Part shown: in pieces, positions 21,209-27,286 of the stretch
How the letters are laid out: every line of letters starts with the position of its first letter
How positions within the stretch are numbered: position 1 is the first letter of the stretch
Source of the DNA: an uncultured archaeon
GTDB taxonomy: Archaea; Hadarchaeota; Hadarchaeia; Hadarchaeales; WYZ-LMO6
Assembly (NCBI GenBank): GCA_938074535.1
Contig: CALJER010000029.1
Span: 1-49,490, forward strand
Direction: 5' to 3'
DNA length: 49,490 nucleotides
Program-made: the position numbers and the translations under genes
Notes under the pieces: generated by a model
The model's database searches: none
Seen by the model: the letters and a program-made list of their open reading frames with translations, nothing else
What the model was told of the DNA's origin: nothing

Positions 21209-21609
21209 CCGCTCACCACCCTTATCCGGTTTTCCCCCCAGTAGATCCTCAGGGGTCTCCTCAGGTTCTCGGAGGTGAGGAGGAAGGCCTCCACGTTGTT
21301 GCACACCGTCCCCACCCTCACGCTCCTTCCCCCCCTTTCCACCACCAGTTCGCCGGAGGAAGGATCGAAGCTCAGGGTGAGGGAGGAGAGCCTGGCGGGC
21401 AGGCTGAGCCTGAGTTCCAGCCCCGACCCGTTGGAGTAGACGGAGTTGATGGCCCCCGCCAGCTCCTCCCCCACCATTCTGGCCTCCAGTCCTTCGCCGA
21501 TTCCGCGGGCTTCCTCCATCCTGGCCTGGTACACGTGGAGGAAGGAAGAGCACACCACCATGAGGAGGGTCAGGGCGAAGATGGCGTCCAGGGAGAAGAA
21601 GCCCCTCAT
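21205..21609 (-). CDS. Class III signal peptide pilin-like protein
   Basis: MRG|FFSLDA, LAGAINSVYSNG; ATGA overlap. Confidence 0.78.
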   Translation of the reverse strand: MRGFFSLDAIFALTLLMVVCSSFLHVYQARMEEARGIGEGLEARMVGEELAGAINSVYSNGSGLELRLSLPARLSSLTLSFDPSSGELVVERGGRSVRVGTVCNNVEAFLLTSENLRRPLRIYWGENRIRVVSG

Positions 21610-22058
21610 CCTATCCCCTCCCTGGGCTCCACGTACAGGTAAATTTTGCCGTTTTCCAGCCGCGCGTTTTCCACATCCCCCGGCCACCCCACGATCACGG
21701 GGTAGCTCCCTGCGGGCAGGTGGAGGAGCCTGGCCCGGAAACCGTACCCACATGGGCTCACCACCACCAGCTCTTCCCTCCCCCAGAGGACCTCCACCCT
21801 CACCTCGTTCTCCCGGAGTTCTAAGTTCCACCTCTCTTTCAGGCTCACGGTGACCGTTCTCACGCTTCCCTCCCCCCCCGAAACCACCTCCTCCAGGGCA
21901 GAGGCAATGGCCCGGGAAGCGGATCCGGCCTGGGAGAGGTAAAGGGTCTTCTTGAGTCCTTTCTCAGAGGTATCCAGCACGGAGGAGGAGAGGGTGGCCA
22001 CCAGCACCAGCAGCGCGGAGAGGAGCACTAGGTACTCCACCGAAGTCTGCCCCCTCAT
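21606..22058 (-). CDS. Class III signal peptide pilin-like protein
   Basis: MRG|QTSVEYL; ATGA overlap. Confidence 0.8.
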   Translation of the reverse strand: MRGQTSVEYLVLLSALLVLVATLSSSVLDTSEKGLKKTLYLSQAGSASRAIASALEEVVSGGEGSVRTVTVSLKERWNLELRENEVRVEVLWGREELVVVSPCGYGFRARLLHLPAGSYPVIVGWPGDVENARLENGKIYLYVEPREGIG

Positions 22059-22654
22059 CCCACCACCTCGTCCGAGAGGGTGATCCTCCTGGGATAGGTG
22101 TGGAAGGGATCGTAGACGAAGGTGAAGGTGAGCAGGTGCTTTGTCCTGGTGCCGGGCTGGAGGAGGAAGTTTTCCTCCACGTGCACCCCGTTCTCCCTCA
22201 CCCACCTCTCCTCCCTCTCCTCCCCATTTTCACACCACCTGCTGGGCAGGAGGGTGTTCACCAGCACGGTGGAGTTCAGCCTGTTGTCCCACTCCCCGTC
22301 CCCGTCCAGGTCCAGCAGGATTATCACGTCCGCCCTCCCGTTCCTTTGGATCTCCCCGTCCGAGGTGAGAATCCCGTCCGCCTCCAGGCGGTCGTAACCG
22401 CCCACGCGGATTCCCACGGCCTCTTTGGGGAACCAGACCTCGACCTGGGTTTTGGCTCCGGGACCTGCCCCGTACACCGCGTTCACGGCTGCAGCTATCT
22501 TGACCGCAGTTTCCCTGGCCTCCGCCAGGCAGGAGGCCTTCTGGGCCCCTCCCTTCGCTTCCTGGTAGAGGGGGAGGGTGAAGGCGACCAGGAGAACCAT
22601 CAGGCCGCTGAGGATGACCAGGAACTCCAGGCCCACCTGCCCCTTCCCTTCCAT
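22055..22654 (-). CDS. Class III signal peptide pilin-like protein
   Basis: MEGKG|QVGLEFL, IAAAVNAVYGAGPG, DLDGDG (Ca-binding-like); TTAATA 24 nt upstream. Confidence 0.8.
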   Translation of the reverse strand: MEGKGQVGLEFLVILSGLMVLLVAFTLPLYQEAKGGAQKASCLAEARETAVKIAAAVNAVYGAGPGAKTQVEVWFPKEAVGIRVGGYDRLEADGILTSDGEIQRNGRADVIILLDLDGDGEWDNRLNSTVLVNTLLPSRWCENGEEREERWVRENGVHVEENFLLQPGTRTKHLLTFTFVYDPFHTYPRRITLSDEVVG

Positions 22655-22778
22655 CTGCTAAGGAGGGAAAAGTGGAGTATTAAGATTGGCCCGAACATGA
22701 GCCGGCCCGAACCCGAAGGGCGGAAGGAGGGGGGAACTCAAGTATAAAAGGGCCTCCTTTCCAGGGTTCTGGGGGAGG

Positions 22779-24584
22779 ATGGGAGAGCACAGCTGGAAGG
22801 TTCCGGAGGACAGGCCATGGTTCAAAGAGGGTATATGGCCGGAGAGGGTCCCCCGGTCGCTGGGATACACGGAGGAGCCCCTTTTCTCGATCCTGGAGCG
22901 CTCGGCGGAGAGGGATCCGAACGGAACCTCGCTGATTTTCTTCGGAAAGCGCATCACCTTCAGGCAGCTGGACGAGCTCTCCAACAGGTTCGCCAACGCT
23001 CTGGTGGCACTCGGTCTGAAGAAGGGCGATAGGGTGTGCCTCCTCCTGCCCAATTGCCCGCAGTTCGTCATAGCTTATTTCGGAATCCTCAAGGCGGGAG
23101 GAATCGTGGTGGCCCTCAACCCCCTCCAGACGGAGAGGGAGATCGAGTACGAGGTCAGAGACTCGGGGGCGAAGATCCTGGTGACCCTCAACCTGGAGCT
23201 GACCCTTCCCAAGGTCCTGTCCATAAGGGAAAAGACGGGGCTCGAGAGGATAATAGTCACGAGCCTGAAGGAGTATCTGCCCTTCCCCCTCTCCCTCCTC
23301 TTCAACCTGGCCATGAGGAAGGAACTGGTGAAGATGCCCAAGGAGGGGGGAGGAATTTTGCACTTCCGCCGGCTCCTCCGCAGGCATCCCCCCAGCAAGC
23401 CCGGAGTGAAGGTGGAGGGGGAGGACGTGGCCCTCATTCAGTACACGGGGGGAACCACCGGTCTGCCCAAGGGCTGTGTTCTCACCCACTTCAACCTCCT
23501 GGCCAACGTCAGGCAGGTGGGGGCCTACAGCGTCCAGTTCTTCCCCGAGGAGAGGTTCGAGCCCCTCCCGCAGGAGTACAGGAAGTTTCTGCCAGCGGAG
23601 CAGGTGGAGAGGTACACCACGGGGAAGGGGATGGGGCCGGTGATGGGGGTTCTCCCCCTCTTCCACGTGTACGGGATGACGGTCATCATGAACACCTCCA
23701 TAGCCGGGGGGATGCCCCTCATCCTCTTTCCGAGGGCCGACCTGAAGAGGATCCTCCGGGCCATCCGCCGGTACAGGCCCGAGACTTTTCCCTCCATCAC
23801 CACCCTCGCCGTGGGTCTGATGGAGCACCCGGAGGCCAAGCGGTGCGATTTCACCTCCATCAGGGTGACGGGTTTCGGGGCCATGTCCGTTCCCCCCCAC
23901 CTCAAGGAGAGGTGGAGCAAGCTCACGCGCGGGCTCTCCATAGAGGGCTACGGCCTCTCCGAGGCCAGCCCCGTAACCCACATGATGCCGGCCCACCTGA
24001 AGGATCCCTCTTCCTTCGGCATTCCCGTCCCGGATACAGACGCCAAGGTGGTGGACATAGAAACGGGGAAAGAACTTCCTCCGGGAAAGGAGGGGGAGCT
24101 CTGCGTGAGGGGTCCGCAGGTGATGAAGGGCTACTGGAATCGACCGGAGGAAACCGCCAAGGCCCTGAGGGACGGCTGGCTGCACACGGGGGACGTGGTG
24201 AGGATGAGCGAGGACGGGCTCTTCTACTTCGTGGAGAGGGAGAAGGACCTGCTCAAGTGCAAGGGATACCTGGTTTCCCCTGCTGAAATAGAGAACGTGC
24301 TCTACGAGCACCCGGCCGTGGCCCTCTGCGCGGTGGTGGGGAAGCCGGATGAGGCGGCGGGGGAGCTCCCCAAGGCCTTCGTGGTTCTGAAGGAGGAATA
24401 CAAAGGGAAGGTCGGGGAGAAGGAGCTCATGGAGTTCGTCAACCAGAGGGTGGCGCTGTACAAGAAGGTGAGGGAGATCGAGTTCAGGGACGATCTGCCC
24501 AAGAGTCTGGTGGGAAAGGTGCTGAGGAGGGTGCTGAGGGAGGAGGAGAAGCGCAAAGCCGTGGAGGGGAGAGGGGGAGGATAG
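22779..24584 (+). CDS. fadD: Long-chain fatty-acid--CoA ligase
   Basis: QYTGGTTGLPKG, LPLFHVYG, EGYGLSEASP, GPQVMKGYW, WLHTGD, LPKSLVGK. Confidence 0.9.
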   Translation: MGEHSWKVPEDRPWFKEGIWPERVPRSLGYTEEPLFSILERSAERDPNGTSLIFFGKRITFRQLDELSNRFANALVALGLKKGDRVCLLLPNCPQFVIAYFGILKAGGIVVALNPLQTEREIEYEVRDSGAKILVTLNLELTLPKVLSIREKTGLERIIVTSLKEYLPFPLSLLFNLAMRKELVKMPKEGGGILHFRRLLRRHPPSKPGVKVEGEDVALIQYTGGTTGLPKGCVLTHFNLLANVRQVGAYSVQFFPEERFEPLPQEYRKFLPAEQVERYTTGKGMGPVMGVLPLFHVYGMTVIMNTSIAGGMPLILFPRADLKRILRAIRRYRPETFPSITTLAVGLMEHPEAKRCDFTSIRVTGFGAMSVPPHLKERWSKLTRGLSIEGYGLSEASPVTHMMPAHLKDPSSFGIPVPDTDAKVVDIETGKELPPGKEGELCVRGPQVMKGYWNRPEETAKALRDGWLHTGDVVRMSEDGLFYFVEREKDLLKCKGYLVSPAEIENVLYEHPAVALCAVVGKPDEAAGELPKAFVVLKEEYKGKVGEKELMEFVNQRVALYKKVREIEFRDDLPKSLVGKVLRRVLREEEKRKAVEGRGGG

Positions 24585-24730
24585 CTCCCAGCGTCCTGGC
24601 CAGAGCCTTTCTGGAACGGTTTTCTGCAGGTGGGCGCTGGCACGCGACAGGGGTGGACTCTGGAACCCGCCCGCTCCCTCCTTCCGGCGGGGAGAACCAG
24701 GTTCAAGCTTAAAAGAGAAAAAAGGGGGGT

Positions 24731-24982
24731 TTAGCGGGACAAAGCTTCCTTGGTCCGCTGGAGGGTGGTGTCGTTGCACACCCATCCGCTCTTCGCCAGG
24801 TAGCCCTTCAGGGTGTCCCAGGGGGTCGGGCCGTAGCCCAGAACCCATCCGTGGACGAAGATTACTGGGTCCCCGGCGGTGGAGCTTACCCAGCTCCGGG
24901 CCATCGCGTGGGCGGCGGGGGTCGCCGATACCACGAGCACTGCCATCACTGCAGTCAAAACCGCGGGTGTCGCTTTTCTCAT
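24731..24982 (-). pseudogene. Truncated secreted alpha/beta-hydrolase (lipase-like) N-terminal fragment
   Basis: Sec signal MRKATPAVLTAVMAVLVVSATPAAHA (AHA cleavage) then DPVIFVHGW; stops after 83 aa, before any GxSxG. Confidence 0.55.
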
Positions 24983-25113
24983 CGCTTGTGAGATCCAAGC
25001 TCGAGGCACAAGGGTAGTGCAACATGGAGTCCGTTTTCGTAACATGGGACCCATCCTCCGCTGGGTCGTGGTGCCGGGGGCGGGTTAATATCCCTCCCTT
25101 CCCAAAGAAAAGG

Positions 25114-25365
25114 ATGGACGGGAGGGCGCAGGGAGCGCTGGAGTACCTCCTCATCCTGGCTGCGGTGCTCATCACCGTGGCCGGGGTGGTGGCCGTCCTC
25201 TACTCCTCCTCGTCCTCCCTCTCCCGCACCGTGCGAGGGCAGGTGGACAACGTCCTGGAGAACGAGGTCCTCCCCGGCCTTGCCGGCCTCTCCCCCTCCG
25301 GAGAAACACCGGAGGCGCCGGCACCTTTCCCCGTCGGCGAAGTGCCCCGCTTCCCAGCACACTAA
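25114..25365 (+). CDS. Stand-alone small pilin (class III signal peptide, DUF361-like)
   Basis: MDGRA|QGALEYLLIL; TTAATA 24 nt upstream (leaderless). Confidence 0.8.
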   Translation: MDGRAQGALEYLLILAAVLITVAGVVAVLYSSSSSLSRTVRGQVDNVLENEVLPGLAGLSPSGETPEAPAPFPVGEVPRFPAH

Positions 25366-25613
25366 CCACGGGTTTCCTCGCACGCCTTCCGGCGCTCTCC
25401 ACCCGCTAACCCTCGTGGTGGGAAGGCGGGGCCTGCCGGTGTGGCGCACCAGGGTTGGCTACCCGCCCATCGCAGGGTGTTCCCGCCCTGAACTCGCGGG
25501 AGGACCCAAATGGTGCGGCTGTCCCGGCAGTGGCTCCGGTGTACCCGCGGCGATGCACCGGCGTTCACGGATCCCGCCAGCCCTTTCGACCGCGGAAAGG
25601 TCCCTCATGGCCA
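25363..25613 (-). ncRNA. Putative large structured ncRNA, family unassigned
   Basis: End-to-end helix, nested 6-7 bp helices, two GGAA tetraloops, complementary hairpin loops; G-U pairs and GNRA loops favour the minus strand; AATAAATA ~25 nt upstream. Confidence 0.65.
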
Positions 25614-25633
25614 CTCAGTTCTTGGTCCTCCCC

Positions 25634-27286
25634 CTATTTATTTTTCCCGGGGAGGGCCTCGACGTCCAGCTCCAGGGAGGCCACGGGATGCCCCAGCTCG
25701 AAGGAGAGCAGCACCTCCGGATGCACCTCCCCCGCCATCCCCAGCTTCCTGCCTTTCCAGAAGAACTCGGCTGCCCTTCCCTCCAGGAAGCTGGGATGGT
25801 CCACAGGCCTCGCCTCCGGCGAGAGGCCGAACTCCCTCGCCACGGCCTCCACCACCGCCTTGATGTGGCTCCAGTCCGCCCCCTTCCCTATCACGCAGGC
25901 CCCCAGCCTGCGCACCTCCCTGGCGCCCGTTTCCGCTTTTTCGTCCAGCAGCACCACATCCCCCACCTCAAAGATCCTCTGGGGAAGGGGGTGCCTCCTG
26001 TTGGAGCGGAGCACCCCGAGCAGGGAGGGGAGGAGCCAGGTCCTGAGGATGGTGAACTCCTCCGAGACCGGGTTCCCCACCTCCACCGCCTCCCCCCCCG
26101 TCCTCATCATCTGGAAGTTTACCTTTGGGCTGGTGAGGGTGTAGGTCATCACCTCCGTGAAGCCCAGCCCCACCATGATCAGGCGGACGAGGTCCGAGAG
26201 CTCCTCCACCCCCGCCTTCCTTCCCACCGTGTTCACCCCCTTCACGCGCGGAGGGATCCTGTCGTACCCGTATCCCACGGCCACCTCCTCCAGCAGGTCG
26301 ACGGTGTGGAGGAGATCCGCTCTGAACGGCGGAGCCAGCACGGTCAGGTTCTTCCCCTTCACCTCCACCCCGTACCTCATCCTCCTGAGGATCTCCGCTA
26401 TCCTCTCCGCCTTCAGGTCTAGGCCCAGGAGCTCCCTGGCCTCCTCCTCCCTCAGCTCGAACCTGCGGGGCTCCAGGGAGGGTGTCTCAGCCGTGCGGCC
26501 AGGATATCTGATCCTGACGGTCTGGAGGCGGAAGCCCCTCTCCGCCAGGGAGGTCATCATGAGCACCAGGCCCAGCTGCACCCACTCCTCTCTCTCCCCC
26601 GTCACGTCTATGAGGAGGCTGGTGGTGTTCTTCGTCACCCTGGTGTCCTCGCTGTTGATGATGGGAGGCATGGAGAGCACCCTGCCCCGCCGGTCCAGGA
26701 GGATGGGGTACCTCTTCTTTCCCTGCAGGATCCAGCCGTACTCCCTTCCTTTGGGATGGAGCTGCAGAATCTGGGCCGGGGTGAGGCTCTCCCCGAAGTC
26801 CAGGGGGACGAAGGAAATCCCCTCCGGCTCCACGGAGGTGTAGGTGAGGGGGGGCTCCACCTTGTCCAGGTCGTAGACCCCTATGGAGCCCTTCCTCCTC
26901 CTTCCAAGGAAGTCGTGGAGCTTCTCCTGGGTCTGCATGAGGGAGGCCACCACTTCCTCCGTAAGCTTCGCTCCCCTCACCACCCCGGCGGCTATGAAGG
27001 GCCTTATCCCTTTCACGCTCCTGTCCACCCTCACCGTGATTCCCGAGCGGGACGCGGAGTAGGAGGGCAGCCCCTTTTCCCTGCCCAGGAAGCCCCTCAG
27101 GGCCCTGGCCACCCCTTCGGGGCTGAGGAGGTCGGGGCGGTTGTGCAGGACCTCCATCCTCAGTTCCTTCCCCAGGAGTTCCGCCTCCACCCCCATGAGG
27201 GCGAGCTTCTCGCACAGCTCTTCCCCCTTTCTCCTTTCCCCCAGCAGGGAGCAGAAGTCGCCGAAGTTCACGGAAAGGGTTGGCAC
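25634..27286 (-). CDS. pheT: Phenylalanyl-tRNA synthetase beta subunit
   Basis: NRPDLLS, SMPPIINS, RADLLH..DLLEEVAVGYGY, LRTWLLPSLL, GEVHP. Confidence 0.96.
   Translation of the reverse strand: MPTLSVNFGDFCSLLGERRKGEELCEKLALMGVEAELLGKELRMEVLHNRPDLLSPEGVARALRGFLGREKGLPSYSASRSGITVRVDRSVKGIRPFIAAGVVRGAKLTEEVVASLMQTQEKLHDFLGRRRKGSIGVYDLDKVEPPLTYTSVEPEGISFVPLDFGESLTPAQILQLHPKGREYGWILQGKKRYPILLDRRGRVLSMPPIINSEDTRVTKNTTSLLIDVTGEREEWVQLGLVLMMTSLAERGFRLQTVRIRYPGRTAETPSLEPRRFELREEEARELLGLDLKAERIAEILRRMRYGVEVKGKNLTVLAPPFRADLLHTVDLLEEVAVGYGYDRIPPRVKGVNTVGRKAGVEELSDLVRLIMVGLGFTEVMTYTLTSPKVNFQMMRTGGEAVEVGNPVSEEFTILRTWLLPSLLGVLRSNRRHPLPQRIFEVGDVVLLDEKAETGAREVRRLGACVIGKGADWSHIKAVVEAVAREFGLSPEARPVDHPSFLEGRAAEFFWKGRKLGMAGEVHPEVLLSFELGHPVASLELDVEALPGKNK

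Follow-up and report, generated by a model that had tools for sequence, protein, structure and literature searches.

A probable three-motif box H/ACA guide RNA, related to HgcG/Pab40, downstream of pheT in Hadarchaeota

A conserved RNA gene downstream of pheT

The window analyzed here is a stretch of 49,490 nucleotides (nt) from the genome of an uncultured archaeon of the phylum Hadarchaeota (hereafter G000, which belongs to family f1 and, together with G002 and G004, to genus g1). Its minus strand hosts pheT, an open reading frame (ORF) at 25634-27286 in which we found the domains of the beta chain of PheRS. Between the stop codon of this gene and a convergent ORF on the plus strand sits a structured RNA, which the initial annotation of the window had left unassigned. 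We propose that this element is a box H/ACA guide small RNA (sRNA) transcribed from its own TATA promoter, and that it is the Hadarchaeota ortholog of Pab40/Pf7/Pho40/Afu4 (HgcG). We estimate the probability of this interpretation at about 0.9.

The whole sRNA is predicted to occupy approximately 270 nt of the minus strand (25344-25613), both ends being predictions. A TATA-like promoter element on the same strand (25635-25646, GAAAAATAAATA) overlaps the last codons and the stop of pheT. Its TATA-like stretch AAAAATAAATA, at 25646-25636, overlaps the pheT stop codon (25636-25634) and is centered about 27 nt upstream of U25613, in agreement with the upstream element that had been noticed earlier. 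An A/T-rich, TATA-like run occurs in all upstream flanks that we inspected by eye (51 out of 51), at a constant distance of approximately 18-19 nt before the start of the covariance model described below. Since pheT is the upstream neighbor on the same strand in just 19 of the 32 loci with enough flanking sequence, the RNA is independent of pheT. The idea of a structured non-coding RNA that is transcribed on its own from the minus strand behind pheT is borne out. The limits originally given to it, 25363-25646, need correcting: 25614-25646 correspond to the promoter and to the end of pheT, and the RNA reaches about 20 nt past 25363, to approximately 25344.

The element is conserved among Hadarchaeota. 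A BLAST search with 25340-25650 (minus strand) detected the stretch in 32 out of 41 related genomes, with 67-95% identity. The covariance model R1, which was trained on 18 sequences from Hadarchaeales, matches the window at 25338-25616 (263.3 bits) and finds full-length matches in 57 out of 66 Hadarchaeota genomes, in 24 of the 26 genomes of high quality and in 19 of the 20 genera. The nine genomes with no R1 match are 67-92% complete. There is almost always one match per genome; G032 has two full copies (C19:10337-10628 and C5:61417-61709, with 277.8 and 258.4 bits, respectively), and in G016 and G055 the matches are broken across contig ends. We also derived a degenerate sequence pattern from the alignment of Hadarchaeales, which recovers 51 out of the 55 aligned sequences. 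A scan of one genome per species, over 185,579 species, gave 50 stretches with this pattern. Of these, 48 have record titles with the names Hadarchaeota, Hadesarchaea, Hadarchaeum, Hadarchaeales or Hadarchaeia. The other two are titled 'uncultured archaeon' and 'Candidatus Hodarchaeaceae', respectively.

Predicted architecture of the RNA

In archaeal H/ACA ribonucleoproteins (RNPs), kink-turns (K-turns) are recognized by L7Ae, and Cbf5 contacts the ACA box and the lower stem through its PUA domain. The aligned sequences indicate that the RNA is composed of three consecutive box H/ACA units, each with a lower stem, a pocket, an upper stem and a K-turn or kink-loop (K-loop). The frequencies reported below refer to alignment A2, in which 55 homologs were fitted to R1 (54 distinct rows), and all features lie on the minus strand.

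Unit 1 (25540-25596; stems 98.1% and 98.6% paired) has a lower stem of 7 base pairs (bp; 25590-25596/25544-25550), the 5' guide UCGAAAGG (25582-25589), an upper stem of 7 bp (25575-25581/25557-25563; 98.6% paired) and an 11-nt K-loop (25564-25574), whose 5' side carries NGA and whose 3' side carries U/GGA, each in 52 out of 54 rows. Its 3' guide is GCAUC(G) (25551-25556), and its ACA box (25540-25542; ACA in 51 out of 54 rows) lies 14 nt past the upper stem. Beyond this box, the unit is apparently closed by a C/D-like K-turn, Kt-1. The bulged, box-C-like strand of Kt-1 (GGC-CAU-GA-GGG, 25602-25612) carries AUGA in 52 out of 54 rows, and the non-bulged, box-D-like strand (CC-G-GA-GCC, 25532-25539) carries GA in 52 out of 54. 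The canonical stem (C-stem) is 91.8% paired and the non-canonical stem (NC-stem) is 100% paired with 25532-25539. This K-turn, (N)AUGA(R)GG opposite N-GA-GC and enclosing an H/ACA hairpin, is the only C/D-like trace in the RNA: we found no CUGA, no C'/D' boxes and no methylation guide, and the signature of a box C/D sRNA (box C RUGAUGA, box D CUGA, internal C'/D' boxes and a methylation guide of 10-12 nt) is absent.

Unit 2 (25440-25517) has a lower stem of 6 bp (25512-25517/25445-25450), a 5' guide with invariant GGUCC (25501-25511), an upper stem with a K-turn (GA at 25494-25495, GAUGG at 25467-25471) below an apical hairpin (25472-25493), a 3' guide with invariant CAACCC (25451-25461) and an ACA box (25440-25442; 53 out of 54 rows). 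Directly after this box comes the 3' strand of a clamp helix, S2 (CCGGCAG, 25433-25439), which pairs with CUGCCGG at 25524-25530. A second clamp, S3, pairs GCCCCGC at 25426-25432, a strand that holds the junction position 25427 discussed below, with GCGGGGC at 25344-25350, the predicted 3' end of the RNA. In most relatives, S3 lies directly after the ACA of unit 3 and a T-rich run is found downstream of it. Unit 3 (25352-25423) has a lower stem at 25416-25423/25352-25359, the invariant 5' guide CGAGGGUUA (25407-25415), an upper stem with a K-turn (25401-25406/25368-25373), an apical hairpin capped by GGAA (25384-25393) and the 3' guide GGUUAGUG, with invariant GUUAGUG (25360-25367). ACA is present at unit 3 in 46 out of 54 rows and AAA in two more (ANA in 48 out of 54); the six remaining rows come exclusively from f1, the family of the window. 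As for the K-turns of units 2 and 3, GA occurs on the non-bulged strand in 53 and 37 out of 54 rows, respectively (the other 17 rows of unit 3 have AA), and on the bulged strand in 50 and 54 out of 54.

The sequence of the window alone folds no better than chance: its minimum free energy is -128.5 kcal/mol versus -121.5 +/- 5.3 in shuffles (z -1.32), and 22 out of 200 shuffles fold equally well or better. Across the 54 distinct sequences, 94.2% of the cells of the H/ACA structure are paired, compared to 82.1% in column shuffles, and pairing falls to 37-44% when the partners are slid. Compensatory changes are detectable in 45 out of 62 pairs, a value reached by none of 500 shuffles. The stems of the three units are 84.7-99.4% paired and most of their pairs show compensatory changes. 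Because G-U pairs are frequent, these stems also fix the minus strand as the transcribed one. We tested the two clamps separately and independently of the alignment columns. S2 forms at least 6 contiguous bp in 52 out of 53 sequences compared to 21.1% of shuffled partners, and S3 forms at least 7 bp in 53 out of 53, whereas 9.2% of shuffled partners form at least 6 bp; both clamps are built from a wide variety of sequences. An additional GGGU/ACCC helix inside unit 2, returned by RNAalifold, was dropped: both of its strands are invariant and make better guide strands, although this choice is not proven.

Several helices of the initial annotation reappear in this structure. The one at 25524-25530/25433-25439 is clamp S2, and that at 25511-25517/25445-25451, which is 99.4% paired, corresponds to the lower stem in hairpin 2. 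The GGAA-capped hairpin at 25382-25395, now part of unit 3, is 98.1% paired. The other capped hairpin (25473-25490) is supported in part, the three apical pairs that we tested being 89.2% paired. A contact between the loops of two hairpins, CGCGG with CCGCG, had been drawn as a kissing-loop pseudoknot. Its pairs do exist (98.1% paired, 7 out of 7 with compensatory changes), but they are nested and form the lower stem of hairpin 1.

Homology to HgcG

We regard the RNA as a diverged homolog of the Rfam family HgcG (RF00064) and not as a new RNA class. A comparison with Rfam had been proposed as the check on novelty. No match reaches the gathering score in the window, and none has E <= 0.05 over the whole window; novelty is nevertheless removed in substance by the HgcG matches of relatives. 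In the region of the element, the match with the lowest E is HgcG itself (16 bits, E 0.032, 25545-25595, in unit 1), and this is also the best HgcG match of the whole genome. Other weak matches (mir-150, MIR2933, PK-BYV and GlsR20, E 0.25-9) were taken as chance. When 19 small loci of relatives were compared with Rfam, HgcG was the sole family listed, and 12 of these loci match it at E <= 1. The homolog in G041, a genome from another order (locus L063), aligns with positions 1-276 of the HgcG model (62.9 bits, E 2e-15), with the three units in register and the guide cores CGAGG, GGUCC, AACCCU and GGGUUAGC in common. The same locus is found by R1 at 80.1 bits. Rfam misses the RNA of the window owing to its divergence and to inserted helices.

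The earlier exclusion of two other RNAs is confirmed, as neither the RNA of the signal recognition particle nor RNase P RNA has a match in the window and both are encoded elsewhere in the genome (C5:38551-38859, 149.2 bits, and C3:39174-39465, 178.7 bits, respectively). No transfer RNA was found in the window.

Pab40, Pf7, Pho40 and Afu4 are three-motif H/ACA sRNAs (Muller et al. 2008, PMC2377435; Grosjean et al. 2008, PMC2584109), Pab40 has been equated with Rfam HgcG (Toffano-Nioche et al. 2015, PMC4652768), and the Pyrococcus homologs are catalytically active guides (PMC2377435). The RNA of the window resembles Pab40/HgcG in having three H/ACA units in identical order, with a K-loop in unit 1 and K-turns in units 2 and 3. 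The cores of the Rfam consensus are alike as well (CGAGG with GUGC-A, GGUCC with AACCCU, and GGGUUAGC with GUUA). Compared to this consensus, the C/D-like K-turn that closes unit 1 and the clamps S2 and S3 after the ACA of units 2 and 3 are extra. S2 and S3 are absent in G041, and the 3' strand of Kt-1 is there an insertion relative to the HgcG model. The members of f1 differ further from HgcG in that their unit 3 is without ACA and their unit 1 has the 5' guide UCGAAAGG instead of GAAUCGAGAG.

Comparable RNAs are known from other lineages. In Haloferax volcanii, HP1 is a homolog of stem II of Pf7, and HP2 is a homolog of stem III and guides the pseudouridines of helix 69 (PMC2584109). According to the same study, haloarchaea have no stem-I unit and a long spacer separates their two hairpins, whereas here we find three units and short clamp helices. 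This homolog with two hairpins shows that the family occurs widely among Euryarchaeota and that its structure is plastic. The Pyrococcus RNA Pab21-sR9 similarly combines an H/ACA unit and a C/D-type element in one transcript (PMC2377435, PMC4652768). In the RNA described here, in contrast, the C/D-like K-turn merely closes the base of unit 1, and the CUGA box D, the C'/D' boxes and the methylation guide are missing. Helix 69 is a target of H/ACA RNAs also in eukaryotes, where it is guided by snR191/U19 (PMC2584109). The eukaryotic guides differ, however, in that they are H-box/ACA RNAs with two hairpins and lack K-turns, and no homology in sequence can be demonstrated. In yeast numbering, the domain V site equivalent to U2588, which is discussed below, would correspond to the target of snR46.

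Predicted targets in ribosomal RNA

We extracted 23S and 16S ribosomal RNA (rRNA) from genomes with a match and compared the flanks of every U with the two strands of each pocket, looking for pairing on both sides. The top match of unit 3 is UAAC-U-A-UAACCCUC(G) in the loop of helix 69 in four out of four genomes (4+8-9 bp). The target position is a U in all seven genomes in which the region was recovered, out of eight examined. The predicted target of unit 3 is like that of Pab40, in which U2016 of stem-loop 69 is assigned to motif 3 (Muller et al. 2008, PMC2377435).

The top match of unit 1 in G000 is GGAUGC-U-A-UCUUUCGG in domain V (5+8 bp), the 8 bp being formed by UCGAAAGG/UCUUUCGG. The top match in G010 is UUUGC-U-A-CCUCG, and in G013 the canonical site, at index 2604, is level with GAUGC-U-A-UCUU at index 2721. 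Unit 1 of most relatives fits the site equivalent to U2588, but with just 3+3 bp in G000 and G002. If the helix-69 sites are equated (G013 index 2033 = Pab 2016), index 2604 falls on Pab 2587, the published position being 2588. At this site, the guide strand on the 5' side of unit 1 shows covariation with the rRNA, with AUCGAG/CUCGAU in G013 and G024 and CAGCGAGA/UCUCGCUG in G009 (rRNA L139, sRNA L009), where the guide has changed together with the rRNA and 8 bp are kept despite an A at the target.

For unit 2, the A-loop site GGGUUGU-U-C-GCCC ranks first in G010 and second in G013, where it lies at index 2663 (Pab 2646 versus Pab 2647). This site is among those debated for motif 2 of Afu4 (PMC2377435, PMC2584109), and U2647 is the one originally proposed for it (PMC2377435). 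In G013, the candidate sites of units 1 and 2 follow the helix-69 site on its 3' side at distances of 571 and 630 nt, respectively, and the corresponding spacings in P. abyssi are 572 (U2588) and 631 (U2647) (PMC2377435). An alternative site for unit 2, GGGUU-U-A-GACC, pairs over 5+4 bp in a hand alignment, and its equivalent (Pab 2678 / H. marismortui 2621) is favored in PMC2377435 and PMC2584109. The predicted target of unit 2 is thus ambiguous between the U of the A-loop and the U of GGGUU-U-A-GACC.

The rRNA genes of G000 are far longer than the models, with 4653 nt for 23S (C3:18321-22973) and 2356 nt for 16S (C3:23171-25526). Homology of the 23S breaks right after the helix-69 loop, between UAACCCUC and the following G, and again 5 nt past the canonical target of unit 1, after U-ACCUC. 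The second break is found also in G002 and G004 and is not found in G005, G013, G010, G009 and G024. Presumably, the breaks of G000 are introns inside or beside H/ACA target sites. All three members of genus g1 (G000, G002 and G004) have such a putative 23S intron 5 nt past the canonical target of unit 1. We rejected the possibility that it drove the retargeting of unit 1, as the guide is changed in G005 too, where this intron is missing. Another feature is present only in f1: the linker before unit 1 contains CCUUUC, which is complementary to the changed 5' guide GAAAGG (25582-25600). Judging from this complementarity, the pairing could mask the guide transiently or could be a coincidence.

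Candidate protein partners and transcripts

According to the mechanism that we propose, transcription of the minus strand from the TATA promoter would proceed from approximately 25613 to 25344. By analogy with characterized archaeal H/ACA RNPs, each K-turn or K-loop would bind L7Ae and each unit would recruit Cbf5-Nop10-Gar1. The strands of the pocket would then pair with the 23S rRNA that flanks an unpaired U, and this U would be isomerized to pseudouridine by Cbf5. Unit 3 would in this way modify a U in the loop of helix 69, and unit 1 would act on the domain V uridine of GGAUGC-U-A-UCUUUCGG in this genome and, in most relatives, also on the U2588-equivalent. G000 encodes a Cbf5-type protein (TruB_N, 82.9 bits), Nop10 (84.6 bits) and L7Ae (106.5 and 72.6 bits). 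The match to Gar1 is weak (25 bits, E 1.4e-5) and falls under the Pfam cut-off of 29.3 bits.

Close relatives of the RNA are present in two metatranscriptome runs of one study. In run X1, a 263-nt contig (depth 381.7) covers 25343-25599 and nothing else. In run X4, a 217-nt contig (depth 38.5) has a 30-nt terminal repeat and joins 25427 back to 25613, which suggests the signature of a 187-nt circular RNA with units 1 and 2. The linear contig of X1, from the same study, crosses 25427. In the DNA-like run X3, a contig is continuous from pheT into the element and one contig ends at 25344. Since a DNA-like run also yields this end, the X1 contig, which ends at 25343, gives just weak support to a 3' end near 25344. 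Run X2 has no contig on the stretch and the RNA contigs do not cover 25200-25342 or 25614-25800, gaps that prove nothing. By eye, we saw no bulge-helix-bulge around 25613 and 25427. An RNA ligase of the Pab1020 type (TIGR01209) has no match in G000, which, at 93.6% completeness of the genome, is no proof of its absence.

Evaluation of the guide RNA and of alternative explanations

Several observations weigh against the identification of the RNA as an HgcG-type guide. The HgcG gathering score of 77 bits is reached neither in the window (16 bits) nor in the tested relatives (best 62.9 bits), and therefore the RNA is not a member of the family by the curated rule of Rfam; by homology, it is. The paired fraction of 94.2% is inflated, A2 having been fitted to part of the structure under test; S2, S3 and the C-stems of the K-turns were outside the alignment model. 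The evidence for RNA comes from contigs assembled from close relatives, which show neither strand nor level. As for the units themselves, the guide of unit 1 in G000 pairs over just 3+3 bp with the canonical site, as does that of G002, and the canonical unit 1 target of G009 is an A and not a U. The A-loop site of unit 2 is outside the top four sites in G000 and G002, which adds to the ambiguity of its target, and the ACA of this unit is located at 19 nt in G000 and at 16 nt in most relatives (usually at approximately 14-16 nt). Finally, unit 3 has neither ACA nor ANA in this genome and in any of the f1 rows (six out of six).

The initial annotation had offered a different model of the same RNA, namely a novel ribozyme or RNP scaffold closed by its 5' and 3' ends, with a kissing-loop pseudoknot and a switch in which an internal 'mimic' of the 5' end competes for the 3' end. 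Every pairing of this model exists in the sequence of the window and lies where it had been placed, and no Rfam match reaches the gathering score; the stem of the hairpin at 25536-25561 is even 87.3% paired across homologs, but its competitors, the upper stem of unit 1 (98.6%) and the K-turn, are better supported. The four helices that are distinctive of the model are 59.2% paired compared to 58.2% in shuffles. Taken separately, the closing helix is 66.2% paired, the helix 25573-25578/25425-25430 is 26.0-68.4% paired, and the stem of the hairpin at 25582-25600 is 18.7-53.3% paired and restricted to f1. The 'kissing' pairs form a nested stem that fits the Rfam HgcG consensus. The 'mimic', ACCACGAGGGUU, has no comparative support as a switch: it is the invariant 5' guide of hairpin 3 and is complementary to the loop of helix 69 of 23S rRNA. 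Covariation thus largely refutes this model, to which we give very little credence. Novel class, ribozyme and switch give way to a three-motif H/ACA sRNA homologous to HgcG/Pab40, and the scaffold for an RNP survives as the three-unit guide RNA. A cis-acting element of pheT seems to us even harder to believe, be it a regulatory structure in the 3' untranslated region or a terminator or attenuator shared with the convergent pilin-like gene. Such a role would be in line with the location of the element, which follows pheT immediately and on its strand in 19 out of 32 loci, and with the contig of the DNA-like run X3 that continues from pheT into the element. However, in the 13 loci in which pheT is not upstream the RNA and the TATA-like element still keep their spacing, the 263-nt RNA contig falls about 14 nt short of the 5' end and includes none of pheT, and both structure and guides are of the type of trans-acting H/ACA RNAs.

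A third possibility is that the RNP derives from an H/ACA guide but no longer has pseudouridylation as its main job, and acts instead as a chaperone of rRNA folding or as an assembly scaffold that pairs with 23S. The extra L7Ae site and the clamps would then reflect the new role. Unit 1 of G009, with its 8-bp complementarity around a target A, would fit such a function, as would unit 3 of f1, which has no ACA and unchanged guides, and the presence of four L7Ae-type motifs and two covarying clamps. Nonetheless, units 1 and 2 retain canonical geometry and ACA, the helix-69 position is a U wherever it was recovered, and the catalytic activity described for the Pyrococcus homologs (PMC2377435) argues for modification. 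We consider a chaperone improbable as the main role, and one that is compatible with guide function. If the RNA is instead the guide that we propose, its additional features may mean that in Hadarchaeales an ancestral three-hairpin guide was rebuilt to give a clamped RNP that has four L7Ae sites, a 187-nt circle of units 1 and 2, a unit 3 without ACA and a retargeted unit 1. In such an RNP, Kt-1 would close unit 1, S2 would lock unit 2 directly behind its ACA box, and S3 would do the same for unit 3. The circle would be closed at the 25427-25613 junction and unit 3 would become a separate piece, which could stay attached via S3. In f1, unit 3 would work without an ACA box, and unit 1 would be retargeted to the uridine of GGAUGC-U-A-UCUUUCGG, which is not among the pseudouridines listed for P. 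abyssi. This combination appears unlikely to us as a whole, and we treat Kt-1, the clamps, the ACA-less unit 3, the changed guide of unit 1 and the possible circle as leads rather than findings.

With its identification as a guide, an apparently orphan structured RNA gains a known job, which is predicted to be the guiding of pseudouridylation at helix 69 and in the peptidyl-transferase region. Our literature search returned no guide RNAs described from Hadarchaeota, an uncultivated phylum. Rfam RF00064 is at present too narrow, and the addition of the 55 Hadarchaeota sequences would make the RNA detectable by annotation pipelines. The extra features offer leads on how far H/ACA RNPs tolerate changes of architecture and on how guide specificity evolves. 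If the rebuilding outlined above were true, a circular H/ACA guide would be described for the first time, and the retargeting of a guide would be documented.

Neighboring genes

The ORF that converges on the sRNA (25024-25365, plus strand, 113 amino acids (aa)) overlaps its 3' end by approximately 20 nt and has a Pfam match to the class III (archaeal prepilin-type) signal peptide (E 3.8e-5). Opposite to the next gene, an ORF of 831 aa (22680-25175) is without any family match and is probably spurious, the DNA being GC-rich. The product of the gene itself (22779-24584, plus strand) is an AMP-binding enzyme of 601 aa and belongs to the acyl-CoA synthetase type (Pfam E 6.4e-96). A class III (archaeal prepilin-type) signal peptide is found also in the ORF at 21606-22205 on the minus strand (Pfam E 2.9e-4).

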